Origin: Paraspadella gotoi
Taxonomy: Eukaryota; Animalia; Chaetognatha
NCBI GenBank assembly: GCA_051294375.1
Contig: CM119263.1
Location: 14,090,414 to 14,154,413, forward strand
Direction of reading: 5' to 3'
DNA length: 64,000 bases
In this document: piece by piece, positions 342 to 32,438 of the stretch
How the letters are laid out: the number at the start of each line of letters is the position of its first letter
Numbering within the stretch: the stretch's first letter is position 1
Notes under the pieces: generated by a model
What the model was told of the DNA's origin: nothing
The model's database searches: none
What the model saw: only the letters and a program-made list of their open reading frames with translations
Translations under genes and position numbers: made by a program

Positions 342-1590
342 ATGTCTCAACATTCGTCCACTGCTAAATCGAATAAATCTAAAAATAAATCGACTAAAAA
401 AGTCAAGCCCCGTAAACTAAAGCTTGACCCATCTGCGTGGGGAGACGAAAAACCGGTGGATTTTATCCTTTCGGGACTAGAGGAAGATATCATCGTTGGC
501 AACGGAAACGAGACGATTCCAAAGACGTCAATATCCACTATCCGAGCCCCAAACGGCTCAAATCCCCCTCCCTCTTCAACACGGAAACCGTCGCTACCGA
601 CGTCGACTTTTGTCGATAAACAGGCGCAAATCTTCGTCGAGGGAAAGAGACGGTTCGTCGCCAAATCCGCCCAACATGTGGCCGAGGAACAGGAAAGAAT
701 GAGATTACAGCGTCGTTTTGATTACGACCCGTCGAGTAACGATTCACGAGGAAACGTGGATTCTCGTGATTTCCGATCCACGAATCTTATCCAAATCGCT
801 ATCCACTTTCAGACATTTTTTCAAAGATTTGCCCACTTGACGCATGGCGTCCTTGCTGGCTTCTGCACTTGGCAGTGCGTCGTCGTTTACTTACTTTATC
901 GAGCCGGCGAGAATGTTATTGCCAACGGTGGGCTCGACTTTGTCTTTGGGCTCTACGCACCTTTAGCGATGCCAGTTAACAGCGCATTGGCTTTTTTGTT
1001 AACTGTGGCGTTTCTCTCCGCGCTGGATGATTTGGACATCGCCTCGTCCGACTCGCGAGCCGTAATCTGCCCCCAATTCGTCACGTTATATTCTGTCTTG
1101 CGAGCTTTTTTAATGCCGGTTCTTATTGTTTCCTTCGTCATCAACAACGTACTCGTTCAAAAAGAAAGCACAATCAGGTGATTGATTTATAATTATTTTA
1201 TTGAATTGATTGATTGATTGATTGGTTTTAGCGAATTGACGCATTGATTAGAGGGATTGCTTAATAGATTTATCCAGTGTTTTACAGTATGTATGTATGT
1301 GAACGATTGAATAACTTTTAGTGTTTTATCATTTCCATGATTTTTCTTTTTACAGCAACTTAGGAATTCCCGGCCTGAACATGAGTAGCGGTTGGAACAC
1401 GACCCAGACAACCCTACGGCGCGATCTCGCCATATCGTGGTTAAGCCTTAACATGGCCCGATCCATCGCGGCACTTTTGAGTTGGTGCCTCGTGGTTGTG
1501 GCGCGTCGCGAAGGTGGCGTTGGGGACGCCCAGATTTTGACATTGACGCGGAGAAAGGCGGATCTGTTGGGGGAGGGAAGGGGTGGTTAA
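342..1590 (+). CDS. TMEM237: Transmembrane protein 237 (transition-zone/Joubert protein), 2 exons (342-1177, 1356-1590)
   Basis: QIFVEGKRRF...FQRFAHLTHGVLAGFCTWQCVVVY...FLLTVAFLSALD and C-terminal WLSLNMARSIAALLSWCLV follow the TMEM237 four-TM pattern. GT..AG intron 1178-1355 is phase-compatible. Confidence 0.85.
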
Positions 1591-4534: not shown

Positions 4535-4587
<53 letters not shown>

Positions 4588-5266
4588 CAAAAGAAAAAAA
4601 GAAAAAAAGAAAAAAATAAGTAGTAATTTGTAAAAACAAACACAAAAACAAACAAACTTTAAACCAGGTTCGTCTTCGGTAGACGTAGCTGAAATGACTT
4701 GGGAGCAAAAGGAGCGCGTGCTTCGTGCTCTCTTCGCGATGATGAACAGCTCAACAAAGAAACGAAAAACTGCAAGCGAAGATTTCGGCGCTTCGACGTT
4801 GCGTCCGACGCCAGCGTTCCTTGAAGCCACAACGGGGCGACGCCCCATCCCGATCATTGCTGACCCGACGCGGCTGGCAATTGAACCGGCGTCGGCAAGC
4901 GCTTCTACCGACGTCCTATTCGGTGATATTCAGCAAAGCGTCACGTCAAACTTTAGGTTAATATAATTAAAGCTGGCGAGATGCACGAGAGCATTTAAAA
5001 TTCTTTGAATTTGATGATTTTTATTTTTCAGCGATGGAACCACGCCGCGTATTTCCGACGGAACAGCGCGTTTGGAGGCATCTGGTAATGCAGGCGCCAA
5101 CCTCTCGATCTCTGAGACCGGTGTCGGCGTTTTGTCAACGAAGGATGCTGGGCTCTCGAGTGTTTTTCCAACGTCGTTGCCGAAGGCTCTCCCAGAAATT
5201 CAAGTGCCGACCTTGACGACAGAACAAAATCTGGCGATGGCGGCCGGTGGAGAGGCTAATGGCTAA
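1923..5266 (+). CDS. BBOF1: Basal body orientation factor 1 (CCDC176), multi-exon coiled-coil protein
   Basis: Exon from 2534 reads ELQRALANAKIWETRLDVCERSRLEYR; later exons give DVITYLKKEDQDKDEQI, RMEQKFFEEKMRL, HQRSEVETFF and MTWEQKERVLRALFAMMN. GT-AG introns traced. Confidence 0.9.
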
Positions 5267-8566: not shown

Positions 8567-11500
8567 ATGCTGGTTCCCATTTTTACCCTTAAACTGAACC
8601 ATAAAATCAGCCCCCGCACGGTGGCGGTGGGCAAGTACGACGGGCATAATCCCTGCCTAACGGGGGCAACGACGGCCGGCAAGGTCTTCGTTCACGATCC
8701 ACAAGGGCGCTCGCTGGGAGGCGGAGCCGGGCAAGGCTTGTCCGTCTCAAGACTTGCAAACGCTCCCGGGGAGAACGACCTCAACATGTTGTCGATAAAT
8801 CAAGCCGTTACTGCCGTTGCAACCGGAATTCTTAATCCCGCGGGTAAAAAAATTCGTGTCAATTTATGATGCATAGGTCGCCCTAAAACATATAAAAACC
8901 TACAAGGTACGCCGGGAGAGGCGCTCGTGATTGGCAGTCAAACGAATATCCTCGCTTACGATGTGATGCAAAACTCGGACCTATTCTACAAGGACGTACC
9001 TGACGGAGTTAATGCTTTGCTCGTTGGTTGTCTGGGCAGCATCGAACAACCCATGGCAATCGCAGGAGGAAATTGCTCTTTGCAGGGTTTCGATTATCAG
9101 GTTAAGGAAAAGTCTATATTGGAACAATAAAAGGAGTAATTTTTCTAAAGATTTAAATAAAACTTTTACCCCAGGGCGAAGACGCCTTTTGGACGGTGAC
9201 GGGCGATAACGTTTGCTCTTTGGCATTGAGTGACTTTACGGGGGACGGCCGCTTGGAACTCGTCGTCGGCTCCGAAGACTTTGACATCCGCGTTTTTCGA
9301 GAAGACGAAATCATCGCCGAGATGACAGAGACGGAAGCTATCACATCCCTCTGCGCCATGTGGGGAGCGAGATTCGGATACTCGCTCGCTAACGGCACTG
9401 TCGGAGTCTATGAAAAGAACTCAAGGTAACTATGACTATCAAAAATCTGGAGCTATCGGTTTGTTGAATGTTGATCTATTGGCGCTTTCATTACAAGTGG
9501 AGTTACTCACTGCCGAGTATGCTGTTCACACTTTCAAGAGAACGGTTAAATCAGAAGAATCGGGATTAAGTGGAGATTTTACTGAGGTTTAAATTACAAT
9601 ATATATTAGTAACTTTTAAATATTGTCTTTTCTTCTTTTGCAGGTACTGGCGCATAAAGTCTAAGAACCAACCCGTCTCGATTTTCGCGTTCGACCTTGA
9701 CAACGATGGCGTCCCTGAACTCATCACGGGTTGGTCTTCCGGAAAGATCGACGCACGGAGCGACAGAACTGGGGAAGTTGTGTTTAAAGACAACTTTCCC
9801 AATCCAATCGCCGGTAGTAAATGTTGTTGTTCCTATTTCATTGTATTTTCTTTTCACCTCCTTTCTTTTTTTCTTTTTCTCGTTTTCACCAGGAATTGTG
9901 GAGGGCGACTACCGGTTAGACGGCAACAACGAGTTGATCTGCTGTTCGATCGAGGGTGAGATTCGCGGTTACCTTGCCGCCGCCAAGGAAATTCAAGGAA
10001 ACCTCATGGGCGTCAATTTGGAGCAGGTAATTTAATTGAGAAGTAGACTCGCATTAAAAAAAATTGATTGTTACCGAATACTACTTTAGGACACGGTGCG
10101 TGACCTCTCGAATCGTAAGCAGAACCTCCTCCTTGAACTCCGCAACTACGAAGAAAATCAAAAAGCCGCAGCCATGAGTCCAGGATCCGTTGAGATCGAC
10201 GGCACGCAGCTCGGAATAATTCCCGCCAACACGCAACTGCAGACGGCTATAAATGTCAATTTGGGTAACTATTTTTTGTGGCCTTTTTTTGGGGGGGGGG
10301 GTGACCGGGGGGTGGTCTGGAGAAGTGTTTGAAAACCATAATTTGTTATTCGAGAAAAAAAGTTCCCTTTTATTTTGTTGAATGCATGTTGCAATTTTTG
10401 CATATATCCCTAGGAACAGAAACGCAAAGACCCCACGTCGAATTGACAGTGGCCACGACTAACGAGACTGTCCTGCGCGCGGTACTCATATTCGGCGAAG
10501 GAATTTTTGAGGGGGAATCTCATGTCGTTCACCCAAACATCGCTAACGCCTCCTCTGCGCTCAGAATTCCTATTGTTCCTCCTAAGGTTTTTAAACTTTT
10601 TCTTATCCCAATTTATATTAAATTTTTTGCAATTTTTTTCAGTCTTTTAACAATTTATTGATTGATTGTTTATTTTTCTTTATATTTTAAACATCTCCAG
10701 GACGTTCCAGTTGATCTACATATCAAATCTCTGGTGGGATTCCGTAACAGCACGCAACATCACGTGTTTGAACTCACCCGCCAGCTTCCGCGCTTTTCAA
10801 TGTACGCTCTTTGGAGGCCATCCATTCGTATTCCTTCACTGGAGGCCACTGCTTCAGAAGGCGGCACGCCTGCAGGCGGTGGGAGTGGCCCCCCTGAACC
10901 CAAGGGTAACGTGACTTTCTCCATAAACGAAAGATTGCAGCGTGTCTTATTGTGGGTCAATCAGAACTTTCTCATGGACGAGGATCTCAAGGTTGAGCCA
11001 GGAGGGGCTCTCCAGGCTGTTTTTATTTCCCTGCGAGGCTCTGGGCCACTTTGGATTCGGATGGAAACTAACGGACAGGTTTGTCTCTCTTATAAGTGGC
11101 TCGGAGAAACTTGATTTTTCGAACGTCCTTTACTTTTTGAAGGTGACCGTCAAAACGGACGACATGGATCTCGCCGGAGACGTGGTCAATGCTCTTTCTA
11201 CATTCCTGAATCTAGACGAGCTGCAAGTAAGTACTGCTCTCTGGAGCACCGTGAACCTCCACAAATGCATCTTGCTATGTTGTTCCAGGTGGTGGCCGAT
11301 TTTCCGGCAGAGATGGAGACGCTCCGCGAAGTGCTTGTGAAGGTTGACGATTTCCACTCAGTTCGGCAGAAACTAACAGCGGAGATGGCGGATCACTCCA
11401 ACCTCATCCGCAATCTCGTCGTCCGCGCCGAGGACGCCAGACTTATGGGCGATATGAGGAACATGAAAAAGGGTTATATGGAGCTCTTTGATCTAAATAG

Positions 11501-11823
11501 GTGGGTAATTTAAAGATATCTATATTGCAAATTATATATTTTCAACTAAATATTTTCAACTAAAACTAAATTAAAGTAAATATTTATGTCAGTTTCATTC
11601 TTTTAATTTTTTTTTCAGAGATTTGATAAATGGTTACAAAATCCGTTGCAACAATCACCAACAACTCTTGAATTGCCTCCGCGTTGTTAACCAGACGATT
11701 CAGAAGGCGGGCAATCTGCGCTATGGTCGCTGTAAATCCGCTCTCGTCACCGCTGCCCGCGGGGCCATCAAGGCCAACAACGTCCAACAACTAATTAAAA
11801 TCATTCGCACGGGTGCCGCTTGA
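8567..11823 (+). CDS. BBS2: Bardet-Biedl syndrome 2 protein (BBSome subunit)
   Basis: [26 protein letters not shown]...; RYWRIKSKN; [25 protein letters not shown]; [15 protein letters not shown]; [11 protein letters not shown]. Confidence 0.97.
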
Positions 11824-12183: not shown

Positions 12184-13170
12184 ATGGATGCCAGCGATCT
12201 TCAGGCCGGTGACAACATCGTTACCGAATTTGCCACCTATGAGGACTTTCTGGACTCTCAGATCACCCAGCTTGATTTGTACTATTTGGAGGACGAAGAG
12301 CTGGCAAGGCAGTTGGTCGAGCTGGGGTATCGAGGCAGCGGCGAGGTTCTTAAAAGGGACGAATTTGAATCGCGAAAGAAGGCCGCCGAAGCTAATCGCC
12401 TTTCTAAGAAGACACAAAAAAAGGTGTAGATCTTTTTTTATCTATTTCTCGTCTTATATTTCTCCCTTTTTTCGCTCATCACTTAACACTCCTTTTTATT
12501 TATAGGCATTAGCCTCGACAGGGAAAGAACTTCGCACCCCTTTTCTTCGTGCTCTGGCCTCGCGTGAGGAGGCGAACCGCAACGGGAAAATGACGTCGAT
12601 CATCTTTGTACGGGATCGCAACTCGCGCGGTCAAGAGATTTCGGGTTACATCGACTTCGCCCATCGCCTCAAGACAGAAGACTTCGAGTCAGTCTTCTCC
12701 GGTCGGAAGCGAATGCTTCCACGGACGACGGACTTAAGCTTTTACAACTGGGAGACGCAGTCTTCAACATCCAACCCCACGCCAAATTATCAAGGTGAGA
12801 GCGATCTACTAATACTTTTTTCAAAATACTCTTTATTGATCGCAGAAAACAAATACGAAATGCATCCTGTAATTTAACGTATCCAGTATGCTTATTTGTT
12901 ATTAACTTATTATAGTATAGCTTAAATTTTCCTTTGTAATTTTTTTAATATTAATTTTGTGAAATAATTGTTTGGCTAACCTGCTTTTATTCTCAAGTAA
13001 TCGCGGAGAACGCGTCTGGTCTTCTTTTCAAAAACAAGCGCGACCGGAAAATTCTCAACGTGGACCCAAAGGCATCTACGCCGGGCGACAACTCAACGCG
13101 CATAGTTGTTGAGAGTCCCGAGTTCGCACAGATCGTTATCTACGACCATATCACTCGAAGGAAAACTTGA
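12184..13170 (+). CDS. CFAP299: Cilia- and flagella-associated protein 299 (C4orf22), 3 exons
   Basis: [38 protein letters not shown]; [19 protein letters not shown]; last exon [17 protein letters not shown]...[10 protein letters not shown] (TGA 13168-13170). Confidence 0.95.
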
Positions 13171-13494: not shown

Positions 13495-16366
13495 ATGGAA
13501 GGTCTGCCGTTTCTTCCCGGTTACACGTTCGCAGACAAAGATCCCACGAAGACGAGATATCACGTTAGCCAGGTAAAACACGTTTACATCGTATTTATAT
13601 AAATTCTTACATCTGGCCACTTCATTTATAAACCCGATCATTATTTTTTTAGACGTTGGAGTACAAGAATGGTTTCATGAAGCAACTGGTACCTGTGTCT
13701 AAAGGCATTGGAGCCCAACCGATTCACTATAACCAACTGTCTCAAAATGAGCTTGACGATTTGGCCAAGTTTAACCCTATTCTCACCTACGGTCAAGCTA
13801 AGCAGGTAATTAATGATTTTTGAATATTTTCAAGTAATAATATTCAATGTTGAATATTCAAATACACTACTTTTCGTGGGTTGTCAATTAGGCCCCACCA
13901 GAGGACTTCGTTCCTGCCCACAAATTCTTCGACAAAAAGGTACTCCGTTTCTACGGTTACTTCAAGGAGACCGTCCACGAATCTCCGCAAGAGTTTTATC
14001 GCGTTCGACCTGTTGAGGTAGAGTACAATAGAAAGCAATTTATAAAGAGTTTTATTTTTATTCATTAATTCATTTAATGTATTCAATTTAATATTATTTA
14101 TTTATGTATCATTATTTAATTTCTTTTAATTTTAATTCTTAATTCATTAATCTCCCCAGGTTTACTACTTTTTGGAGGACGATGCTTTGCTGGTCAATGA
14201 GCCTCTCGTCGACAACAGTGGCATCCCTCAGGGGAAGCTCATCAATAGGCATAGAATCCCTAAGAACGACCACGGAGACTGTTGGCATTGGAAGGTGTTG
14301 TCTATACTATACTATACTATACTATACTGATGTCTGTGCTATGACTATACATTGATTAGAAATTGTAGAATTCCTAACTCTTTAATTCGACTGTTTACAA
14401 GGATTTAAACATCGGCATAGATGTGGTTTTTTATGGAAAAGTCTTCCGCCTCTGCGACGCAGACAAGTTCACCAAAGATTACCTGCAGAGCGAGGGCATC
14501 ACCCTGAACGATCCCGAACCAGTCGCAGAGGATCCCTACAACGCCGAGAGGCTCGAGCGCAAAAAGCCCAAGTGTGTGAACTTTGCTTGTTGTAATGTTA
14601 AAGCGAAAAAAGGGAGATGGTGACATTTTGTTTCTTTTTCGGACGCAGATTCACGACGACTCCGTCCAGTTTCGACAAACTGCGACAATTCATCGAGATG
14701 GACCGAAAAGTCTTGCGATTTTGGGCCGTTTGGGACGACACTGTAAGGAGAGAGAAAAAAAATTAAGTAGTTTAGAGTAGATCAAATTTATGGTTTCTCT
14801 ATTCGAATTTTTCACGATAAGGACAACATGTTTGGAGAGCTGCGGCCTTACCTCATACAATACTATCTCGTCGACGATACGATGGAGGTTCGCGAGATCC
14901 ACGAGCAAAATGACGGGCGCGACCCGTTTCCGGTGCTGATCGGACGACACCGAACCCCGAAAGACCGCGATTCCATCCCCGCAGCTTTCCCGCTGATCTC
15001 CATGGAAATCTCGGCCAAGGAGGTGGGCCAGTATTTTCGCGCCCACGACCTCGGCCTGGGCAAGACCGTCGAGGTTTACGGCCGGCGTTTCCTCATTTAC
15101 GACTGCGACAACTTCACTAAGGCTTTTTACTTCGATAACTTTGGTGAGAGAAACAGATCATTTTTTGGAATATATACTTGTATATATTATGTACTACATT
15201 AAAAATACAGTTAAAATTCTAGGGAGTTCTAATTATATTCGCTTGACCGTAAACATAATTTTACCGAAATCCTACAGGCATCACCGACTTTACTCCGATC
15301 GACTGGCGCCAGAAGAGGCCTCCCATTCCCAAGATGGAGATCCCGCCTTACAACGGCTACGGCACACTCGAGGACTCCTTGGGATCTTGCCAAACGAGCC
15401 TCGAGCCGAAAGTGCCGAAGAAGGACTACGTCAAAATCCTGGAAAATGAGCACAAAGTGAGACACGGTCTTAAATTTTCATTTAATAAGTCGATATCTAA
15501 ATGTCTGAAAATATTCTTTTTAATTTCTAGAAACTGCGATACATGGCGGAATTGGACTCCGTTGTCCCTGAAGACAAAGGACGGCGTTTTGTCTTCACAT
15601 ACCGCTTGGCTGACGACATGCTGAGCATCTACGAACCGCCCGTCAGGAATTCGGGGTTCAAAGGTTATTCTCTGCTTTTTCAAATGCCAAATCAAATGAC
15701 AAAGTTTTAGTTTTCGACAAATATTACACCTCAATTTTTTTTTTCATTTTTCTCTCCTTTCCCCTCTCCAAATAAGGCGGCGCCTTCCTTTTGCGAACCC
15801 GCCCTGCCAAACCCGAGTTTACGCCGGAAAAACCAGTCTACTACGGCCCCCAGGACTTCGCTATCGGCGCCATAGTCAAAATATTGAAGAATCGATTCCG
15901 CATCATTGATGCGGACGAATATGTTCTCAAGTTCGCCGAGGAGCACGCCGACCAGTTTCCACCCGAGACGCTGGAGTCCCTGCGCAATGGAGTCACAAAA
16001 ACCGTCGACGTTCGATGCAGGGAGCCCACGAAAGGTCAGATTCTAGAAAGAGTAGGGTTTTCAAAAAAAATTTAAGGGCAGGAGGAATGAATGTTAATTA
16101 ACAACCTGTTTTAATTCTGTTATGTGAAAGACGAAATAGCAACAACGACCTAAAGGTAACGCCATATCCCGCAGGCGGTCCTATGCATGTGAAGCGTAGT
16201 GATGGCGGAAGTGACATTTCCGGACTCGTGCGCGAGATGACGCAGCAGTTGAAGAAGATGCGTATCTTCGACAGTCAGCAGATGCGTGAGATGTTCCTCA
16301 ATTATGATTGCAACCGAAGCGGGTTTATCGAGTTGGAGGTGAGAGAGAGAGTGAGTGAGTGAGTGA

Positions 16367-16430
<64 letters not shown>

Positions 16431-16516
16431 GACAGAGAAACCCGCCACACATCTTGGATCGAGTGAGTGAGTGAGTGAGTGAGTGAGTGAGTGAGTGAGT
16501 GAGTGAGTGAGTGAGT

Positions 16517-16558
<42 letters not shown>

Positions 16559-16828
16559 AGACAGACAGACAGAGAAACCCGCCACACAACTTGGATCGAG
16601 GGACGTGAAAGAGTGAGAGCGTGAGAGAGTTAGAGAGAGACAAAGCGTGAGAGCGCCTTAAATTAATTTTCAAAATTATTTGTTAATTATAAGGAGCTAA
16701 AACGGATGTGTCGTAAGATCAACCTCCCGATCGATGAAGACGTGATAGAAGCTTTGGCGGCGGAATGTCACGCCGACTCTGAAGGGCGCATCGGCTTCCA
16801 CGATTTCCTCGAATTTTTCGAAAATTAA
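13495..16828 (+). CDS. EFHC1: EF-hand domain-containing protein 1 (Rib72 family: three DM10 domains plus EF-hand; axonemal microtubule inner protein)
   Basis: [12 protein letters not shown]...; DM10 repeats [32 protein letters not shown] and [10 protein letters not shown]; [14 protein letters not shown]; C-terminal EF-hand ([14 protein letters not shown]). Confidence 0.93.
16339..16650 (+). repeat. (GA)n/(GTGA)n microsatellite with a tandemly duplicated unit in the last EFHC1 intron
   Basis: acagagaaacccgccacaca.cttggatcgag occurs twice; cttggatcgagggacgtga also occurs at ~39743. Confidence 0.8.
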
Positions 16829-17491: not shown

Positions 17492-19548
17492 ATGACTGAC
17501 CCAGAAAATAACGATGCATTGTGGGAAGATCGGGAAATACGCTTTGACATCACCCCTGTGCAGGTATGGTTCGAAAAAAATTTTATTAGAATTTTTTATA
17601 CATACTACTTAGTAATTAAAATTGTTTTCATAAAATTGGTACAACCAATATAAAAATTATGCATTCATTTAATAAATAAGCTATCTTACCCCTGACTTTG
17701 GACAGGCGTGGGTGGTTTAAGGCCTCCATCACTCTTACAAGATAATGACAAAGCAGGTCCCTGCAAGCTTTCAATCAAGACTCACAGTTTCGTTTATTCA
17801 CTCCCATAGTACCTGGCTTCCCTATCAATGAAGTGGTATAATATTATTATATCATTATACTAAAACATGAGTATTATACTAAAACATGAGTTTCTAAAAC
17901 TAGGAGGTCGTTGTTAGACGTATTTTGATAATGAATACGATACCACTTTTTGGTTCAGATGAAAATGCGTCCAGGGGAAAGAATGATAGATCGTCTCGAC
18001 TCGGTCGAGGACACGAAAGGGAACAATGGCGACAGAGGACGCCTTCTCGTTACAAATCTTCGAGTCATCTGGCACTCCCACTCCATGCCTAGGGTCAATC
18101 TCTCTATTGGCTACAATTGCGTGCTCAGGCAAGGACACGATGGATATATTTTTCATTTGCAAATTATTCGTTTTTAAATTTTTTTTCATTTTTTTTCAGC
18201 ATCACCACCAAAACGGCTTCGTCTAAGTTACGCGGCGCTACTGAAGGTCTTTACATCCTTACCAAGGTCAACAATACTCGCTTCGAGTTCATCTTCACGA
18301 ATCTCGGTATTTTAGAAAGACCATGGAAATATGTCAGTTTACATTTTTTTAATGATTTTGGCGATTTAGTTCCCGGGACTCCGCGTCTCTTTACTTCGGT
18401 CATCGCCGTTCATCGCGCCTACGAAACCTCAAAACTCTATCGTGAACTCAAGCTCAGGGGCGCAATCGTTCAGAGCAAGCAGTTGCGAATGCTACCACAG
18501 GAACAAGTCTACTCAAAGGTGGGCAGAAGGCAAAATAGTTCTCGCAAAAGGTTTCATAGTCAGTCTCCTTTTATTTTTTCTCTTTTAGGTTAACGGCGTT
18601 TGGAACTTGTCCAGCGACCAGGGAAATCTAGGCACTTTTTTTGTGACTAACGTTCGTCTCGTTTGGCACGCCAACATCAACGAAAATTTTAACGTCTCCA
18701 TCCCGTACCTTCAAGTAAGATTCGCTGTTAGTCCGCCAAGTGTCGCTGTCTACCCCGGGTAATATATTCTTTGTCCTTTTGTTTGTTACTCGCAGATGCG
18801 TTCAGTTAAGCTTCGCGACTCGAAATTCGGTTTGGCGCTCGTCATCGAAACCTCCGCTCAGAGTGGAGCTTATGTCCTCGGTTTCCGGATCGACCCCAGC
18901 GATAGACTCAAGGAGGTGACAGATTATTTCCTTTGGACTTCCTGCTTTATTAATAATAATACCGAGATTTTTAAAAATAATATTTTGAAAACCTAATCAC
19001 AGTTTACCTAGTTTACTAAAACAAACTAAACCCGTCTTACAATTTACTTTTTATTTATTATGATTTATATCTGTATTCTTCAAGGTGGTAAAGGAGATCC
19101 AGTCTCTGCACAAAGTTTACTCTAACTACCCAATATTCGGCGTCGAGTATCAGACGGAAATGCAGACAGAGGGTGATGAGGAGTCTGGGGTTGACCCGAC
19201 CGAGGACGAAGTCGACATAGTCGACGACAGCAGGTGGTTCTATAGTAATGATTATAAAATGATGATTGGCGATATTAATGATAAAGATGAATGAATGTGT
19301 GAAAATTTAAATAGATTTTAACATTTAAGAAATCCTGTAAAAATATATCCTTGGTAACATTCATTATTAATGTTATGTTAATGGCTTTTTAAAGCGAAAC
19401 CGGTGGCAAGACCGACGCGTTCGCAGCCTACTTCGCCGAGGGTCTGCACCAAGCTGACCGCGAAGTTGTCTACTCCGAGGAGCTCGGCCTCGCCATCGAG
19501 AAGCTCAAGGACGGATTCACCCTCAAGGAACTTTGGCAAGTCGTTTGA
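17492..19548 (+). CDS. BBS5: Bardet-Biedl syndrome 5 protein (BBSome subunit)
   Basis: [13 protein letters not shown]; [31 protein letters not shown]; [17 protein letters not shown]; [21 protein letters not shown]. Confidence 0.97.
17632..17776 (+). repeat. Dispersed repeat family A (copy in BBS5 intron 1)
   Basis: ggtacaaccaatataaaaattat..cattcatttaataaataagctatctt...ggcctccatcac...gcaagctttcaatca. Confidence 0.8.
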
Positions 19549-19844: not shown

Positions 19845-21603
19845 ATGAAGACAACGACGGCGACGACCCAGTCGGCGGGGGCAAAGAAACCCGCTTCCCC
19901 GTCTGTGGATTGTCTGGAGGCCGTCGTCGACGCCCATATCCTCCCTTGGGAGATCAACGTCAAGTGGAACGAAAATGCCCCCATAATCTTAGGTTGGTGA
20001 AGTTATTTTTAGCATTGTAAGATGCCGATTATGTTTATGGTTATGCTACTGACATATCACCACCTTCATGCCGTCAACGTAATTGCATCAAATTTAGCAA
20101 TCCTCGTTTTTAATTTTGTTAAATCAAACTAGGAGAATTTCCGGACCGCCCTCCACGAAAAATGTCGCGTCAGGCGATCCAAAATTCTTTTCGTGTTTTA
20201 AAAATCGCCAATCAAGGCGTTGAAGAGCTCGACAAGACAATTAAATACTTCACGCGGCTGGAGACACTTATACTGACAGCCAATAACCTTCACAAGGTCG
20301 ACTCGCGGTAGGTTATGACAAAATAAAAATCTTTTCTGCAATAAAATTTTTAATATTTTTTGTTGTTTCTTATGTTTTCCGTCTCGTTTCCACCTCAGCC
20401 AACTTCCTCGTTGCCTTGAATTTCTCGAACTTTGCGCCAACGATCTATCTAGTCTCCGCCCACTCTGCCGTCATCCACCTTCCCTGACGCATCTAGGGGT
20501 GGGCTACAACCACATCGGTAGCCTGGAGGGTTGCGTGTCGGCCTCGCTTTGGCCTCGACTTCTTTCTCTCGATCTGTCGCATAATGACCTGGACGATCTC
20601 ATCGACGTCGTCTCCCAGATGACGCTGCTTCCGTCGTTGCGGTCGCTTCTGCTCATTGGGAACCCATTGTCGCTGCCGCCAAGTTATCGTGGTTTCGTGA
20701 TCGACGTCCTAAGGGACCTGTTTATCCTGGACGACCACTTCATCACGTCCGAGGAGAGACACGATTTTGATGGCTTCGGACACAATCCAGAAATTAAGAG
20801 TAAGCTATAGGAAGACGGCGATTCGAATTCTGATCATACATAGTTCAAAATTAACCAGTAATCAGTCTTTCCGAGTATTTCATGATTACTATTAATTTTC
20901 ATTTGACAGATGAACTAAACATAACCTTGGAAGCGATGACGATTCGCGGATTGGCGGCTCCGGTCGAACCCAAGCACGCAGAAGATCAGCCAGAATTTCC
21001 TGTCGTCACCCGCAAATTCGCCGTCTATTTTCTTTTGCCTCTCACACCGGCGGAGGTCATCGAAGCCAAGGCTAGGGCTGCCAGGGTCGAAGCGATGGCC
21101 CTAGCGGCCGAGGCAGTCGACAATCTTCCCCCGCCGGAGGTGACTGTGGTCGAGGAGAACCTGGAATTCCACTCCCCCGCCGTTCCTTTTACCCTAGAGG
21201 GTCATGGATCAATTACTGGCTCCGTTCGGTACCCGGCCGAAGACGCCGCCGCCGTCGAGCCAATGCCGGCCTCCACTCCCCCTAAACCAAAGAAGATCCC
21301 GATGCCGAAAATGGAAGAGGAAATTATCCCCATTCCCGATGGGGTTGGGGAGTACGCCGTCAAACCCGTCAAATCGGTCGCAGTTCCCTGGGCTGAGGAG
21401 ATGGACGTACACTGGAAGCAGAGTCTTCAACGAGGCGATCTTTTGGTCTTTAGAAATTTTTTGCGAGACGGGGTCGACGTTCAGATCGTAGAGGAAAAGG
21501 TTCTGGGTGAGTTTCTTAATTAATTAATAATTATTTTTAAATGTTTTTTCTATCTTTTTCATTTTATTTTTTTCCCTTTTTTTTCTTTTCTTATTCTTCT
21601 TCT

Positions 21604-21643
<40 letters not shown>

Positions 21644-21745
21644 TTTCATGTGAAAAGAAAGTCACTGTGACGCAGCAAATTGGAAGGACCATTCTTGTTT
21701 CAGCCAATCAGAGTCACGAAAATAAAGAAGATCAAAAAAATTCGT

Positions 21746-21837
<92 letters not shown>

Positions 21838-23190
21838 TTTGATGTGAAAATAAAGTCACTGCCACGCAACAAATTGGAAGGACCATTCTTGTTTGTTTTC
21901 CGGTTTCCCCTTCTCGCAAAAATTACAATTCTTTTGAAGTTAGTAACTCAATTTAAACATTTTTTATCCTCTCATATCTGCAGCGTACCCCGCTGACCAA
22001 ATCGAGGGTTTTGAGAGTCGCGGAGAATCAGCCGCTGACGGCGCCCGCAGCGCAGCAAGCAAAGGCGGCGGCGGTGGCGGCGCGAAGTCACGAAACGATG
22101 CTGCGAAGACAAAGGACGCCAAAGCGACCGCAGGCGGATCAGGGGGGGAAGCGAGAAAGAAGAAGAAAGGTAAAGTAAATCATCCTGTGATTAAAAATGA
22201 ACAATGCGTAAACTGAAATACCTTACTGTTATTTCATCAAGAAATATGTCAACATTCTGTTTTAAATAATCGGTAAATAACAAAGGTTTGAAGATGATTC
22301 GGTAAGGCTAAGCTCATTTTAAAAAAAATTGATTTGATTGTTAAAAAATTACAGGTAAAGATGAAAATAAAAATAAAGGTAAAGGTAAAGATAAAGGTAA
22401 AGATAAAGGTAAAGGTAAAGGTAAAGGTAGCGGTAAAGATAAAGGTAAAGGCAAAGGCAAAAAAAAAGGTAAATTTTGCAGGGGAGGGTAAAACAATTAA
22501 TCTTGTTATTCCTTTTGTTCATTTTGAGCTATTTTGAATTTGATTGGAATGAACCTTTATCTTAAAACTACATTAAACCCGTGAATAAATATCCTTTGAC
22601 TAGGTGATGCTGAAGTTGACCTTTTCTCCATGCCACCGGAAGTGACGGTTGTAGCGCGATTTCATGCCAACCTTCGCGACTTCCTTGACGGTGAGCGGGA
22701 CCTGGAGTTCATTTTCAGTCGAGACGGCGGCAACGAGATCGTGACTAAAGTGGATAAGAAGGACAAGGAAAAGGAGGCTAAGGAGGATAAAGACAAGGAG
22801 CCCAAGGACGCAAAAGGCAAGCATGGCGCAAAGACCGCTTCCAAAAAGGATGAGGAGACTCCAGCCGGCGGCAAAAAGGGCGGAAAAGAGGACAAAGCGC
22901 CAGGATCTAAGGGTGCGGCAGATCGTTCTGGTGGAAAATCCTCTGCAACCACTAAAAGCTCCAAGGGGGACAAAGGCGGGAAGGGCGCTGCAGCTGGCGA
23001 CGGGTCGCCGGATGAGGCGGCGGTAACGAGTGCTCCCCCGCCGCTCGAGTGCCACTTCCGGCTCGGCATGGCACGATGGGCCAAGGCCTCGGATTGGGCG
23101 CCCCCAGTTGTAGAAGAGAAGAAGGCAGCGCCCGTTAAAAGTGCCAAGGGGGGGAGACAGAAAAGCGCTGGTGGAAAGAGTGACGCTTAG
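19845..23190 (+). CDS. LRRC43: Leucine-rich repeat-containing protein 43
   Basis: LETLILTANNL...LPRCLEFLELCANDLS...WPRLLSLDLSHNDLDDL...LLIGNPLSLPPSYRGFVIDVL; Lys/Asp-rich C-terminus ending PPPLECHFRL. The start ATG is tentative. Confidence 0.82.
21600..21895 (+). repeat. (TTTC)n tracts with a tandem ~55-bp duplication in an LRRC43 intron
   Basis: atgtgaaaa.aaagtcactg..acgca.caaattggaaggaccattcttgttt at ~21648 and ~21843. Confidence 0.8.
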
Positions 23191-23625: not shown

Positions 23626-25610
23626 ATGCCATCAACTAAGGAGCAGAGAGAAGAAGCTTGGAAAAATTTGGATATTACTCCGGAGGAAGCAGACAGATTC
23701 ACCCAATGTTTCAAGGCAAAATTTATTATCTTCATAGAAATTTTGTATCGACAGTATGGTTATTATACAAATAAATTATAAAAATTTGTATTTTTTTTTA
23801 CCAATAGGACGAGAACTTTCGTAAGCTTTTTCGTGAGTATGCGGAGGAAATCTCCGACCCTGAAAATAAGGCCAAATACGAAATGGAGATCCGACAGTTG
23901 GAGGCCGATAGGGGCGTAGACTGTCAATTTATCGATCCACATCCAGGGTGAGAGCATCGAGCACATTTTGATTTTGATTTCTTTATCTCTTTTTTTTTTA
24001 ATTTTAAACTTCGATATATTTACTTTCTGTTTCGTTGTTATTGTTGTTGTAGTTGTTTAAGTTGCTTATTTTCTCTCTTTCTTTTTTTCTTTCTATCTTT
24101 CTTTCTTTTGTTGTGGATTTATTTTACTTTCACTTTTTTTATCTCGTTTTTTTCTTTGCATTCTCTTTTTTTTTTTGTAATGATTTTTGTCTTTCCTTTC
24201 TTTCATTTTTTTTTCTTTTTGTTTTCTTTTTTCATTAATTTCCATCTCCATTCCTTATCCAAATCTAGCTACGTTCTGAAAACAGTTATGAACGGCGACC
24301 AAAAAATCTTCATCAACGTCGCGGAGAACGATAAAGTGGGGAAACCTTCGTCGCAGACTGGACAGGGAGCCGACGGCAAACGCGGTTTACAATGGAGCAT
24401 TCCTCATTCTTTAGGTCTATAACTCAAAGGATACTGTACAACGTTTGAGTTTTTTTTTTTTTTTTTTTTCGAAAATAATTGAGCAGAGAGGCTCGTCGCT
24501 CTTTCCTTCATATTGAAATTTCTTCCTTAACTCCAGCTCCTGCACGGGATGATTTTGATAAGAACAAAAAGTTGTGTCAAGTCTATGATGTGGTGTTCCA
24601 CCCGGATACTCTTCGTATGGCTTCCAAGAACCGGGCCTTTCGGCAGATGATTGACTCGACGGCCATGGATTCTGTGGAGGAGAGATTCTCCATCAAACTG
24701 GACCGCGCTAACGTGAAGCAGCCCAAAATGAAATACAAAGGAATGCCGCAGGCGGCCGTCATACGCAAAGCGACGGGGCAAAAACCCAAGGAACTTGATC
24801 CCATTCAAGCTGGAGCGTATCCTTCTAATTGGAAGATGCCCAACGAAGACAAGGGTGAGAAATGAGAAATATTAGTGATATAAGTTACATATTGGGTACA
24901 AGATATTATTGATACACTATTATATTTGGTAGTGAAAATTTTCATTTTAACGGTTTTCAGAAGTGAGAATTCATTTAATGTCATTCAATATTAATAATTT
25001 TATATTCCTTTTTTGTCCAATGCTCAATTTTTTTTTGCTCTGCCCCCTAAGAATCTCCACCCGCATCTTTCTCCCCACCTAAAAATTTTCCGGTCGCCCC
25101 TCCTGAGTTCGCCACCCCTAAGTACCAGTTGATCCACCGAAAAAAGTCTGATATGAAAGACTTCACTTACACCTCCTCGCCGGCAAAGGAGATCTGCTCT
25201 ACTCGCCCCGACGAGCTCGTCGTAGAAGTTGAGCTTCCGTTGCTCAAATCTGCCAACGAGCTCAATGTCGACATCGAGGGAGATTCGCTCTTGCTCAAGA
25301 CCGAGCCTAAAGGTGACTATGAGCTGGGAGTAAAGAATGCGTTATGATTTAAAAACTCAGAAGGAAAATGAGGAAAATTATTTTTTAAAAGAGGATTTGT
25401 AAGTTTTTTCTCAAATTGTTTTTTAAAGCTATATTGTTTTAACTTTTATCCTTAGCTGCGAAGTACAAATTGGAACTGAAGCTTCCCTACTTCGTAAACG
25501 AGGATAACGGCAGCGCCAAGTTCGACAAGCAGCGACGGAAATTGACCCTGGTGCTTCCAGTGCTAGAGAGAGTAGAGAGACCAAACACAACAGAGCAAAC
25601 CGAAGACTGA
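23626..25610 (+). CDS. DNAAF2: Dynein axonemal assembly factor 2 (kintoun; PIH1 + CS domains), 6 exons, ~370 aa
   Basis: LDITPEEADRFTQCFK|DENFRKLFREYAEEISDPENKAKYEMEIRQLEADRG; WSIPHSL; YDVVFHPDTLRMA; RPDELVVEVELPLLKSA; YKLELKLPYFVNEDNGSAKFDK. Confidence 0.9.
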
Positions 25611-25756: not shown

Positions 25757-28700
25757 ATGAACGCAACGCCGAGAAACCAGTCGGCGATGGGCGAGAGCGT
25801 AAACCCGGAAGTGGTTCAAGAGTCGGAATTGGCGGGGAAAGATGGCGTCGAAGCGACCGTGAAAGGCACGGAAGAAGAAGATGATGATGAGAAGTCGTAT
25901 AGTTGGCACTCGATCGATGACGAAGAGGAAGACGGTGAGAACTGTTGAATAGTGATAGTTATCCGATTTCTTGAATACTAAAAAAGATTTGTTGGTGTTA
26001 GACGTCACTGACGAGGAGTTTAACGGCATTCTGACTCCTGTTATGGTCGCGCGCGGCCTGGAACACCTCGCGCGTACGGCTATCGGCGATGCATCTAGCT
26101 TCATTCACCTTAAGCTTCCATCGAAAGGATTAGTCGACATCGGCGTTCTCTTCAAGTACGACCAGCTCCAGCTGGTACATTTAGCTAACAATTCTATCGT
26201 CAGTCTGGAGCCCCTCTCTAACATGCCCCACTTATTGGATATCGACGTGTCCGGAAATTTGCTGGCAGAGGTTCTGGACTTTAAACCTCCCAAGAATCTC
26301 ATGGTCGCCAATTTTTCGCGCAATAAGATCAAGAGAATTCAAGATTTGTCTCAGCATCATTTTCTGCAGGCAAGTAAATTAGAAAAAGACGTATCTAGTT
26401 ATAGTTTTAATTAATGAGGTGAGAGTTTATTTTAAGTTTACAAACAAGGAATTGTATTTTTAAAAAAGGAAATGTTTCGGCTTTAATACAAGTTTGAGCA
26501 AACAATGCCGGATCTGCCCACGATCATTAGCGGAAAGCAGATGATCAGATAACTAATCAATAATTTAATTATTAGTCAATTGATTAATTAATCAATTATT
26601 ACAGTTTGCATTTGCATTTAATACAAAAATAAAAAGCATAATCAAATAGTGAAACAGTTTTTTCATATTTTCAATTTAAACTCATTTCAACTTGGACGAT
26701 TCCATCGAAACTTGATTTCCAGATCAATCGCACACTTTTTTACCCACACTCAAAATTTCAATTAAATCGCCTCATCCACTCATAAGTAATTGCCGTTCAT
26801 TGCTAAGGGGGGGCGGACGGATGGACAGATAGACAGACAGACGACGGACAAACAATTTTTTTTTGACATAATTTATCAGAATTTGATATTAAGACATGAT
26901 CTCAGTGAATGACCGACAAGATTGGGGGGACGGACCGACAAAGGTAATTATAGAGCCGGAATCTTCTGTAAGCAGATCCTGCTAAAAATTCGTTGGTTTT
27001 AAATACGTAGAATTTTCAAACTTGACGAAAAAGAAAAAAATATACAACGATAAAAAATTAAAAAAATAAGTCATATTGCGAACTATCCTTTTTCAGACGT
27101 TAATACTTGACGGTAATGAGATCCGCTTCATCGAGGGGCTTATGTCCTGTCGCCGTCTGGTGGAACTCAGTCTCGCCAACAACAAACTAACCACAATCGA
27201 AAATCTGGATCATCTGCCTATTCATCGCCTGAACCTAAGGGTAATAACTGTTGAGAGATAAAAAAAAACCGCGGTGATTTTCTGTTTTATTAACCCGTAC
27301 GTTTTCTTTTTCTATCACCGTCGCTTCTTGTTTTCTTCTTCTTAACTCTCAAAATATCCCCTCAATCCAGGGAAACCACATCGATGAAATTGAGAACCTT
27401 GAGACGCTGGTAGCGCTGCGCGAGATCGATCTCTCCCACAACCAAATCCGTTCGTTGGATGGGTTGCAAAATCACGATCTTCTCCAAACCATCAACCTGG
27501 AGCAGAACAATGTTGCCGATATGAACGAAATACACCATATCTCATCCTTACCTAATCTGAGGGTCCTCAATCTCCAGGACAACCCCGTGCAGCGACTCAT
27601 GGATTACAGGATGGAAGTCTTGTACCTTATACAAAGGTTGTATATGAAATCAGTACAACCAATATTTATTTATAAGTTAATTACGTCCATTTACATCTAA
27701 GATTTTATTTTTTTTTACACTGAGCGAACATTTTGTAAACAGATTGACGCATTTGGATAAGCAAAGGGCATCGACCCAGGAAAAGGTAGCAGCTTTCAAT
27801 TTGTTCAAACCTCCACCGGAGGTTATTGCCGCTCAGGACCACGCCAGGAACCTCATGTATCAGTTCATGCAACCGTCGAAGGTTGGTGAAATAAAAAAAA
27901 AACTGTGCTCCGTATCTTTTCCCTACTCTGCCCGTTATCTAGGTCCTGGAATCGACGCTGCCCAGCCTGGAAACGCCATTCCCCATGCTCGTCCTTGTCG
28001 GACCAAACGGTTCCGGTTCATTCCAGATGGCTCGACGCCTCGCCAAAGACTTTGGGGAGTATTTCCGGTACGCGCCGCCTCAATCTACTGCGCCACCGCA
28101 GATGTACGAAAACAATCTTGGCGACGACCATCTCGGCTACAGGAACGACGCTGAGTTCGATGCTGATGTTAAAGGAGGAAAGTTTTTAATGACGTGAGTT
28201 TAAGGAAAGGAAGAATAAGGAAACACTATAAGAAAAAATTTGAGGTGCGATAAAGATTACAAGGGAGTGGTCGTTTTATACAATTATGCCACTTCATTGA
28301 TTGGTAAGAGAGAATAAACGAGATTCTGAGAGAGTCTTTATGGAAAGCTTGCAGTGACCTGCTGTGTCATTATCTTGTAAGTCAGGGGCAAGATAGCTAA
28401 TTTTTTTAATGGATGGATAATTTTGTATTGGTTGTATCATTGATTATATAAGTAGATTAACCAATTAGCAAATCACTTGTTCACCTACTTTTACCATATT
28501 TTGCTCTATTGGCTTTTTTTAACAATTTTGTGAGGATTTTGACTTGATTTTATCGCCATTCCAATATTCCCTCGATTCTCCAATCCCCCAAGGTATTCGG
28601 TTCACAACAACCTTTTTGGCCTTCTCTCCTCGTCGCTGGAGGAATGTGCTGTAGAGGGTTTAGCATGTGTCACAGTTATGGAGCTGGAGGGTGTTCTCTC

Positions 28701-30081
28701 GCTTAAGAATTCGCACCATCGCCCGCGTTATGTCCTTCTACTCCCACTGGACCCGTTGGAGCACGCGAGGAGATTGCGCGAGCGAGGATGTATCACTCAG
28801 GAGCAGATCGAATTCGAGCAGGAGCGCGTCGGCTTATATGCGCGCTACAATCGAGAGCGGCCGGGATTTTTTGATCGCGTCCTAGACACAACGAATGTGA
28901 GGGAGGCTTACAAGGAGTTGGGAATCACGGTTATGGAGTATTTAGGTATCGGAAGTGCGCGAGAGGAAAGGGAGGAGTTGGAAGAGGATGAGATATTTAG
29001 AGAAGAGGTGGCAAAAGCGTCCAGAAAAAGTCGTGGCGTAAATCTCTTGGGTAAGTTTATTTTTTAGCTTATATCCATCTGCACGTTTTGTATAAGGGAT
29101 TTATGACGCACGGCTTCAAAATTTCACTAATTAAAGCTGTAGTCAATTGCACCGGTTTATCAAAATCCACAATTAAACCATTAATATATAAATTAAAAAA
29201 ATATAAATTGCACGTTATAAAACAATTACGCACGATTTTTTTACCGCACGGTTTTTTTATTTCACATATTTTACGAACACTCCAGAAAACAAAAAAGGGA
29301 AAACCAATTGTATACACAACACCGTCTTTGTTCATTTGTTTGGGATTCTTACCCGCCGCCGACGTTCCCGCAGGTAGCGCGCTCTCCGACCGTCCTGACG
29401 GAGAGTTCACAATGACGTCTTCCTACCGCGATGCGGCTGCCCTCTACACACCGCTAGACGGCGTCGAAGCTGCTTCTTTCTGGCGCCGAACGGCTTCTGC
29501 CAAAGAAGTTGTCGCTGGAAAACTTGGCTCACCCCACCAGCACCGCTTCAAGGTTCCGGCAACCGCACCGAGCAGACGAGGCGGAAGTGATGATTCATCT
29601 TCGATGTCCGGGGAAAGCGGGGGCAACACAGAACATTCCACCGCCCCAAGGTATTTCTCGACACAGGATAACAGTGTCGACGCCGGAGGGAAGAATCGAC
29701 TCGAAGCGATAACCGGAATTGAATTAGAAACGTCTAACGTCAATAGGTGAGGACTGTGGAACTTATGGAAAGTAACTGAGTAGCAATATGATCAATTAAT
29801 ACAATTATGCTATTTATTGAATCAGAGTTCAGTCTTCTTCGGTCTCTGCATTACCTCCAATAATGAAGAGCTGGGTGAGACAAGGCCCTGCAACCCCATC
29901 AGATACTCCGCGCTTAAATCTTCAGGGATCCTCACTTTCCCGGTCTATTCCGCCCGGGGAAACCAAGAATGAACGCGGCTCTTCCCGTTTCCGTCACAAA
30001 GCTGGCGCTTCAAACGTTTACAAGTCGGCCCCCACGGCTAGATTGGCGCCATCTTCTCTTCCGTCCATCGTTCGTCAATGA
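25757..30081 (+). CDS. LRGUK: Leucine-rich repeat and guanylate kinase domain-containing protein
   Basis: N-terminal LRRs (LQLVHLANNSI, LDFKPPKNL, LILDGNEI), EKVAAFNLFKPPPEVIAAQDH, then a GK-like domain (MLVLVGPNGSG; MELEGVLSLKNSHHRPRYVLLLP). Confidence 0.9.
26488..26985 (+). repeat. Dispersed ~500-700-bp repeat family B (copy in an LRGUK intron)
   Basis: The ends acaagtttgagcaaacaatg..gatct and ccgacaaag..aattatagag recur reverse-complemented at 34435-35170. Confidence 0.75.
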
Positions 30082-30367
30082 ATAAGTTTAATAATAAGTT
30101 TCAGTTTGAACTGTAGCCTATTTCGTCCCTTCTTGTCATTTTTTATTTTTTAAGCGATTGTTTTTCCTTACAAACATATGACTAGCCTTTTTCTTTCTTG
30201 TCAGACGTGAATAAAGCCATTGCCTTGCACTTGTGAACATGCAAAATCAGCGCTTAGCTCTTCTGATGAAGTTTAACGTTTATCATTAAACTTCTCTTCT
30301 GCAGCACCGGTTTCGCCAACTAACTTGATTTTATAAAACCTTTAGTGTTTGAATATTCTAAAAAAAT

Positions 30368-32198
30368 ATGACTGCCTTGGCCGACAAACGAACTCTGATG
30401 CTTGCAAAATCGATCGTAGCCGCCAAAGAATGGCCCGAAAGGCCTCCGAACGAAAGGAAGGTCAAACAAAGAGCCAAGGTATCGCAATGATAAACTTCGA
30501 TTGAAATTTTTTTCCACAAGGAACGGCAATTCCAAGGTGTTACGGCTATTACGACGAAATAATTTTCTCTTCATTTAATCGCTTTTCGATTTGATCTTGT
30601 GACTTGTGACTATTATTATACAAATATTAAAACTAAAACTAAACTAAAAGATATCCTTTGTAGTAAAAACCGCACACACCCAGACTCTCTATATATGTAA
30701 AATGTATTACTTTTTGCTTACAGATAATCTCACAAGAAGAATTGTTGACCACCCATCGGCATCAGGGACTGGCACACCGCAAAACGGCGTTAGAGCGCGA
30801 GCTTCGGACCCGAGGAAAATCGGCCACGACGCGAAAAGACGTCGTCGTAGAATATCCTTCCCCGAGGGTAGAAGAAGAAAGAGGTTGGGAGGGAAGGGAA
30901 GGGAAGAGGAAGAAAGAAAGAAAAGAAAAAAAGAAAGAAAGAAGAAAAGAAAGAAAGAAAGAAAGAAAGAAGAAAGAAAGAAAGAAAGAAAGACAGAAAG
31001 AAAGAAAGAAAAACAAAACAAAACAAAACAAAACAAAACAATCGATAACATGCCTAAATGATGTTAGCGAATCTCGTGGACCGATATCTGTCGGACGTTA
31101 ACAACGACGGAACTGCTACTGAACTGGGGCCGCCGGTAATGGTCATCTCCGAACGGCTTCTCGCCAAACCTGCATGGATTCTACGAACAGAAAAGTTTTG
31201 GTGGTGCGGTGGACCTCACAAGGTACATATGCTTTTTTTTTCTTCGTCGCTAGTTTTAAAAGTGAAACTGCCGTTCCTAAACGGAAAACACAGTGCGCTC
31301 CTCGCCGACGTGCACCTGCACAGCTTCGACCCACCGTTTATGGATTTCATTCTAAAAAGCACGTCTTTGGATCTGCGCCGACTATGTCCCGGGTCAACAT
31401 GTTTGAAAGGCCCTCAGGGACGCCACCATACAAGGTTCCTATAGTCTTGAAAATTTATTATTTATTCAAAATGCAACAATCACCATTCACCAGATTCAAT
31501 AGTGATTCCCGTTTCCACAGCTCGCCCCTCCACCATCGATCGGAACGAGCAGAAGGGACTTAAGTGTTCGTGGACCGGACAAGAACGTCAGTACCAGGTG
31601 AATTATCAGATTAAGCTTGGTTTTAAATTCCACCTAAATTTTTTAGCTTGTTTTAAACCAAATCTTTTATAATTATATTCTTATCCATCTATAGATACTC
31701 TTTATTCTTTAATCTTTATTAGGACCGTTCCTGAAAGCGTCTCAGTGCTTCGTCCGTGGCTAACCGTGAACTTACCTCACGAGGCCACGGGTGTTTCTTC
31801 CAAAGCTTGCCTAGTGTTCCTCCCGTGCCTCACCCATTCGTCCTTCTTCACTGTCGCTCACCCTTTTCAGGTCGACATCTAAAAGATTTATTGTTTGTTT
31901 CCGGGCGAATCCCGTGGTACATGACCATTTTTTCTCCTTCAGTCCCGCGAGACATTGGGATGGCCATTGACCATGACCAATGGCAATTTAATAGAATAAA
32001 AGTTAGCTCTTTTGTTGGAAAGCCCAGGAATAAAATATTATTTGGTTACAGGAACTTCCATTTATCCCGCCACCGCAAGAAGCGGAACAAGATTTGGATT
32101 TTAAAGCTGTTTTGACGCCAGAGATGGCATCGCCGATGCCTGCTGAAGCTGACATAATAACTGTAAGCGCGTCCACCGTTGGACTAACTTCCAGTTGA
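30368..32198 (+). CDS. Unrecognised ~308-aa basic, Pro-rich protein; 8 exons (30368-30478, 30724-30867, 31068-31135, 31254-31434, 31521-31597, 31723-31790, 31871-32001, 32052-32198)
   Basis: Seven GT-AG introns join in compatible phases into one open frame: MTALADKRTLMLAKSIVAAKEWPERPP...HEATGRHLKDLLFVSGRIPWY...ELPFIPPPQE...GLTSS*. AATAAA at ~32365. Confidence 0.62.
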
Positions 32199-32438
32199 TT
32201 TCTCGTTGATCTTTATTTATCGCTTCTTATCGTCTAATTCTGTTCGGTTTGACTCGACTCTCTTGAATCCTTCAGATCCATCTATCTTCGCCAGGCCGTT
32301 TACATATATTGAAATTTTAAGTATTTATTTTCATATAATCAGTTAATCCCCGTTTTACATCTGCAATAAATTTTAGAACCTCAAATTATTATAATTATTC
32401 GGGAACCTGTTTATTTCCTTTCTTTTAGTTATAGTTTT

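Follow-up and report, generated by a model that had tools for sequence, protein, structure and literature searches.

A conserved seven-exon gene at the end of a run of ciliary genes in Paraspadella gotoi, encoding a member of an unnamed bilaterian protein family

The last gene in a run of known or likely ciliary genes of the chaetognath Paraspadella gotoi is a genuine, conserved coding gene, and the 312-residue protein that it encodes belongs by its sequence to a bilaterian family that has no name and extends from molluscs to amphioxus. The gene lies within a stretch of 64,000 nucleotides (hereafter the window), on the plus strand between an ATG at 30368 and a TGA ending at 32198, which agrees with its placement in an earlier note on this DNA. 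An association of the protein with the cilium is likely.

The supported gene model consists of 7 exons and 6 introns, with all introns being GT-AG and all exons joining in phase into a single ORF (Table 1). The earlier note had described eight exons, seven introns and about 308 residues; its canonical, in-phase joining was retained, but these counts had to be revised. A 2022-nt contig from X1, the only run of its kind and one at contig level whose RNA nature is a guess and is not on record, skips four of the GT-AG introns (31223-31293, 31435-31520, 31598-31722 and 31871-32051; introns 3-6). Intron 2 (30884-31067) is set by the loose end of the same contig (before 31066), which matches the end of exon 2. 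Intron 1 (30479-30723) is based on colinearity with P0001 and P0002, two unnamed full-length proteins that begin at the same Met as the model and have 61% and 64% identity to it. These were the two protein matches among seven candidates in a search with exon 3. A tblastn search with both proteins gives matches on all seven exons, and the single-exon genomic fragments P0003, P0004, P0007 and P0013 begin or end near the same exon borders. Exons 4 and 6 show 71-83% identity to the close homologs, compared to 44-46% for exon 7. Furthermore, the GC content is 53% in exons and 32% in introns, in-frame stops precede the ATG of exon 1, and the other frames and the reverse strand are open for at most 108 codons. 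None of the eight-exon GT-AG models stays open in a non-exhaustive enumeration in which introns 1 and 3-5 were kept fixed. An eighth exon within 31871-32051 was considered and rejected, as the X1 contig skips this interval and no homolog matches within intron 6.

Table 1 Features of the gene run and of the gene for the 312-residue protein, in window coordinates
Feature	Position	Strand	Remarks
TMEM237	342..1590	+	PF15383, E 5e-20
DUF4515 gene	1923..5266	+	PF14988, E 1.6e-4 on one exon, below curated cut-off; presumably BBOF1/CCDC176
Coiled-coil gene	5423..8323	+	GC-AG first intron 5579-5703; no Pfam or PDB match; taken to be CCDC148-like, by resemblance only
BBS2	8567..11823	+	PF14781, PF23350, PF14782
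DUF4464 gene	12184..13170	+	PF14713, E 2e-38; presumably CFAP299
EFHC1/RIB72 (DM10)	13495..16828	+	PF06565; PDB 8snb_7G, E 4e-55, and EFHC1 chains
BBS5	17492..19548	+	PF07289, E 1e-31
LRRC43	19845..23190	+	Best PDB match LRRC43 9ijj_5C, E 3e-26; start codon uncertain
PIH1-domain gene	23626..25610	+	PF08190, E 3e-28; presumably DNAAF2/Kintoun-like
LRGUK	25757..30081	+	Best PDB match LRGUK 9ijj_4P, E 4e-22; last intron 29748-29832
Strong acceptor, no assigned donor	30287..30304	+	63 nt before ATG; score 10.0 vs median 8.5 of real acceptors; shuffle p 0.016, uncorrected
Exon 1	30368..30478	+	ATG, 37 aa; 62/76% identity to P0001/P0002; start Met same as in homologs; N-terminal helix and RPP block common to distant homologs
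Exon 2	30724..30883	+	53 aa, basic, helical; 3' end is loose end of X1 contig; 55/53% identity
Exon 3	31068..31222	+	Clade-specific FWWCGG block; contig joint; match of genomic fragment P0004 ends at 3' boundary
Exon 4	31294..31434	+	Blocks LRPTVYG..FGS and PYK; contig joints; 81/83% identity; aligns to distant family
Exon 5	31521..31597	+	Variable linker; contig joints
Exon 6	31723..31870	+	Family core LRPWL, G, CLVFLP; contig joints; 78/71% identity
Exon 7	32052..32198	+	PP.Q..DL.FK block, acidic tail, TGA; contig joint; matches of P0007 and P0013 start at residue 266
AATAAA, probable polyadenylation signal	32365..32370	+	X1 contig ends at 32365; a contig end is no proof of an RNA end

The earlier note had recognized no family for this protein. 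This holds for Pfam, which gives no match on the seven exons beyond a weak one to bMERB (E 0.05), no match on P0001 or P0002 to DM10 of the microtubule inner protein (MIP) type or to any other domain, and two weak, chance-level matches on 16 further family members. NCBIfam likewise yields two chance matches on 22 family rows. However, homology to other proteins can be recognized by profile methods, and the label 'orphan' given in that note is therefore wrong. A whole-library search with a two-sequence profile of P0001 and P0002 returned 17 proteins at E <= 0.001. Ten of these are longer proteins with E values from 1.7e-10 to 7.5e-4, six are fragments without a name, and one is a member of the query itself. 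The relation to the distant family is found from either side: comparison by hhalign gives a probability of 99.3% (E 1e-20, 127 columns), and with an HMM built solely from 16 distant proteins the 312-residue protein reaches 99.4 bits, compared to at most 6.2 in 1000 shuffles. In addition, the core residues P..L.PW, G, F and P are invariant in 22 of the 22 rows of alignment A4 and are present in the 312-residue protein. In two distant genomic fragments, P0008 and P0015, the match starts right at the border between exons 5 and 6 of the P. gotoi gene, which suggests that one intron position is common to this gene and its distant homologs.

The named members come from 13 genera (seven of molluscs, together with Lingula, Owenia, Ridgeia, Acanthaster, Amphiura and Branchiostoma) and thereby cover molluscs, brachiopods, annelids, echinoderms and amphioxus; examples are Lingula XP_013408501, Acanthaster XP_022108421, Argopecten XP_069124478, Haliotis XP_046574071 and Branchiostoma C3Z7P7/Hypp5168. 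All are labelled 'uncharacterized' or 'hypothetical' except for one fused gene model. This exception, P0029 (Branchiostoma belcheri KAI8500990), is annotated as 'HHIP-like protein 1' and is fused to an upstream HHIP-like gene, probably as a mis-merged gene model. The named matches include none from vertebrates, arthropods, nematodes, cnidarians or protists, with the searches being too weak to show absence. A second profile round gave 8 matches among 7993 scored candidates and recovered only 2 of its own 11 profile members, while a word-based search with alignment A1 yielded, among 7995 candidates, nothing beyond the two members of that alignment. Metagenome scans for the family locus returned 189 and 598 pattern matches, none of them confirmed, and none of 12 family accessions was found in the literature searched.

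Within the family, the approximately 130-residue core and an N-terminal block are homologous between the distant members and the clade of the 312-residue protein. The distant full-length members carry in addition a C-terminal region of about 130-150 residues, a hairpin plus helices that is coiled-coil-like and absent from the 312-residue protein, P0001 and P0002, whereas these three have an FWWCGG block of their own. The absence of the helical region marks the clade, at the level of sequence, as a truncated sub-branch. A tree of 19 rows, from which fragments and isoforms were left out and in which 5 of 16 inner branches are starred, places the 312-residue protein, P0001 and P0002 together on a long stem (100/100; 2.13 changes per column). 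The remaining sequences group loosely by phylum, as expected for an orthogroup: there are two clades of bivalves, besides groups of gastropods, echinoderms and amphioxus.

The 312-residue protein is basic (pI 9.7) and contains 10.3% Pro, which bears out the composition described before, and it has no transmembrane segment (peak 19-residue hydropathy 1.36). The blocks shared by the family, an N-terminal helix with RPP followed by LRPTVYG..FGS, PYK, P..L.PWL, G....CLVFLP and PP.Q..DL.FK, are separated by variable linkers. AlphaFold2 gives no compact fold from the shallow alignments available, with a pLDDT of 31 and a pTM of 0.14 for 2 rows and of 54 and 0.17 for 22 rows. Confidence is limited to the C-terminal helices of the Lingula protein, a region that the clade of the 312-residue protein does not have. 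The low pTM values fit the low structure claimed from composition, but the shallow alignments may account for the low pLDDT. Sequence searches of the PDB with family queries and profiles reach best E values of 0.17, 1.2 and 0.12, the ESM Atlas has no usable match for P0002 or P0009, and the best VIA-align Z score (4.9) reflects generic long helices at residues 276-389, absent from the 312-residue protein, and barely covers the core. The fold comparison proposed to name the family likewise came out empty, as Foldseek has no match at E <= 0.001 and neither PDB nor fold searches point to a named family.

The ciliary context of the gene is provided by a run of about ten genes on the plus strand (342-32198), of which it is the last. 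The stop-to-start gaps within the run measure 146-663 nt, and the gene follows LRGUK on the same strand at a distance of 286 nt, just as reported before, which is within the range of the run itself. The about nine upstream genes are all known or likely ciliary genes, about seven being identified by strong Pfam or PDB matches, one by a weak match and one by resemblance only. Their roles cover the transition zone, BBSome, basal body, doublet, central apparatus and dynein assembly, with LRGUK and LRRC43 presumably being central-apparatus proteins. At a roughly estimated prior of 5%, seven to nine ciliary genes in a row are far beyond chance, and the run is possibly more surprising than the 312-residue protein gene itself. 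No report of a comparable ciliary cluster was found in the literature searched, where papers that mention a 'ciliary gene cluster' or 'ciliary operon' appear unrelated and others deal with operons in general. Also, none of the papers searched contains four of six cluster gene names.

Several features of the window stand beside these observations. Further genes of the run may lie upstream of the window. Introns throughout the window are short, AT-rich and laden with microsatellites. Convergent with the cluster end is a gene on the minus strand (33460-38750) with a long Ser/His-rich exon (37243-38088) and a weak MIT match (E 0.04), which we take to encode a spastin-like AAA ATPase. A two-exon Frizzled-4-like gene (57389-61122), with Frizzled-4 as its best PDB match, lies at the end of a gene-poor tract of about 18 kb that is rich in microsatellites and contrasts sharply with the dense cluster. 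By eye, similar short sequences recur in either orientation within introns and gaps (17628-17800, 6961-7125, 28338-28445 and 199-275), probably as a small interspersed element, and another pair of similar sequences lies near 26500-26900 and 34440-35170.

The same-strand order of the genes and their short gaps are as in SL trans-spliced operons. Moreover, the X1 contig extends 1185 nt beyond its aligned part, for which exons 1-2 account for only about 270 nt. The contig is thus about 915 nt longer upstream than these exons explain (window 29365-30478), which places its start inside the LRGUK coding sequence in the three colinear scenarios tried. The contig therefore probably bridges LRGUK and the 312-residue protein gene, although overlapping UTRs would look alike and the bridge is no proof of a single transcript. 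The acceptor at 30304 is a candidate for a 5' UTR intron, an alternative LRGUK 3' splice or a trans-splice site. A joint between this acceptor and the LRGUK donor at 29748 would provide LRGUK with a short alternative end, and a single mRNA would then carry both ORFs. Such a stand-out unpaired acceptor before the start codon is found in one of ten genes, namely the one discussed here (p < 0.05, uncorrected). An X-box regex over positions 1-33500 finds four palindromic sites, all inside coding regions and none in gaps; no upstream motif is shared in the run beyond A/T runs, and Rfam gives no match over the window. With one stand-out acceptor among ten genes and no X-box in the gaps, the ciliary run is a possible operon only. 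Operons resolved by SL trans-splicing occur also in nematodes and tunicates.

A second pointer to the cilium comes from the distant family members, which contain 19 RPxSA sites in 11 of 13 genera compared to 0.12 expected from shuffles (shuffle maximum 2, block-shuffle maximum 3), for a motif that was chosen after inspection of the alignment and for related genera that are not independent. The 312-residue protein, P0001 and P0002 contain none; RGKSA in exon 2 is kept in all three. To our knowledge, RPxSA substrates are not all ciliary. RPxSA is the CDKL5 substrate motif reported in microtubule and centrosome proteins; it is the CDKL5 site in MAP1S, CEP131 and DLG5, and CDKL5/LF5 acts on cilia and controls ciliary length (PMC6293279).

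The alternatives to a ciliary protein with its own gene differ in weight. That splice sites line up into this ORF by chance, or that the transcript is non-coding, has a negligible probability, being refuted by the spliced X1 contig, by full-length homologs of 61-64% identity and by family homology with its profile scores. It is very improbable that the ORF represents an alternatively spliced C-terminal extension of LRGUK. The X1 contig does probably reach LRGUK coding sequence, and its last exon contains a phase-0 donor at 29875 from which an in-frame joint to exon 2 could be made, but the in-frame stops upstream of the exon 1 ATG and an AATAAA at 30210 in the intergenic gap speak for a separate gene. 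Furthermore, its own Met is conserved in P0001, P0002 and, more loosely, in Lingula, and the distant homologs are stand-alone proteins on which Pfam finds neither LRR nor guanylate kinase matches. A gene of non-ciliary function, for example germline or general cytoskeletal, that merely sits at the cluster end is an unlikely reading, yet one that has to be weighed. The cluster edge is the place where such a passenger is most likely, the next gene is the convergent one for the presumed spastin-like ATPase, and neither a ciliary domain nor a known ciliary homolog was found in the Pfam and PDB searches. In this case the gene would be an ordinary conserved uncharacterised gene. On the other side stand the known or likely ciliary nature of all upstream genes in the run, the 286-nt gap within the run's range and the enrichment of RPxSA in the homologs. 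All 13 named genera, which are marine or freshwater invertebrates, belong to groups with motile cilia, although this discriminates weakly.

That the protein is a MIP, lining the lumen of the axonemal doublet, appears rather improbable. The protein is basic, Pro-rich and non-globular, EFHC1 as a known MIP is encoded in the same cluster, and one conserved PxxYG-like site (PTVYG/PSVYG) loosely resembles the PYG and SNYG modules, which are listed with Mn, NWE, GFG and ELLEn as MIP modules in PMC10973386. However, none of PYG, GFG, NWE, Mn and ELLEn is found repeated in the 312-residue protein with hand-made regexes, and no family profile has a PDB match under E 0.12 in a library that includes the doublet chains 8snb, 7rro, 8i7o and 6u42. 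Echinoderms have the family, yet it matches no solved doublet chain. This absence is compatible with an unmodelled or lineage-specific MIP; the likeness to microtubule inner proteins drawn in the earlier note is not supported by these results.

Taken together, a ciliary role of the 312-residue protein is likely, given its gene neighborhood and the RPxSA sites of its homologs. The claim that it is ciliary by association was a reasonable one, made so by the upstream run and by RPxSA, and it keeps the character of an inference. As to what the protein would do, we lean slightly towards a mostly unfolded scaffold of the motile cilium or basal body, predicted to bind microtubules or a microtubule-bound complex. 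In such a scheme, the gene would be co-expressed with its upstream neighbors, possibly through shared or read-through transcription, and the conserved blocks (LRPTVYG..FGS, PYK, LRPWL, G....CLVFLP and PP.Q..DL.FK) would fold only on a partner, probably located outside the doublet lumen in the central apparatus, its foundation, the basal body or satellites. For the proteins of molluscs, annelids, echinoderms and amphioxus, the helical, coiled-coil-like region at the C terminus would serve as an anchor and the RPxSA sites as a switch operated by CDKL5-type kinases, while the lineage of the 312-residue protein would have lost both anchor and RPxSA and kept the core.

Since catalogues of ciliary parts are based chiefly on mammals, Chlamydomonas and a handful of protists, families confined to invertebrate bilaterians are easily missed. 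Most core ciliary proteins do occur in vertebrates or protists, where the searches, weak in these groups, found no member of this family, which counts against the ciliary reading. A further-reaching proposal, which we hold only tentatively and consider doubtful, is that of an undescribed ciliary family of spiralians and deuterostomes, so far unseen in vertebrates and protists, that is revealed by a co-transcribed animal 'ciliary operon' and acts as a kinase-regulated central-apparatus or basal-body scaffold missed by vertebrate and algal axoneme studies. If the run is one transcription unit, it would be an unusually theme-pure animal operon, and its neighborhood in this lineage could be mined for new ciliary genes. 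The family, 'uncharacterized' so far, gains a testable function, and orthologs are at hand in tractable animals such as sea star, amphioxus, annelids and molluscs.

Chaetognath operons are reported to contain up to nine genes and to be metabolic or germline-biased, with an enrichment of germline and housekeeping genes instead of a single pathway (PMC12460157), a bias that would also suit a passenger. The run described here resembles these SL operons in its same-strand genes, short gaps and probable two-gene contig, but differs in comprising about ten genes of one organelle theme, and six of its gene names are absent from the supplementary text files of that source that were searched (PMC12460157). 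With the module-containing MIPs (PMC10973386), the 312-residue protein has in common a basic, Pro-rich, extended character and a PxxYG-like site, whereas it lacks a repeated module or a profile match to a solved MIP chain. The distant family members are in turn similar to the CDKL5 substrates CEP131 and MAP1S (PMC6293279), since the distant members combine RPxSA sites in a low-complexity N-terminal region with C-terminal helices, although this is an analogy only, and the 312-residue protein itself has no RPxSA. Finally, the central-pair foundation has been reported to include Cep131 and Ccdc148 (PMC11781205), and the presumed CCDC148-like gene shares the cluster, together with central-apparatus genes, with the gene for the 312-residue protein.
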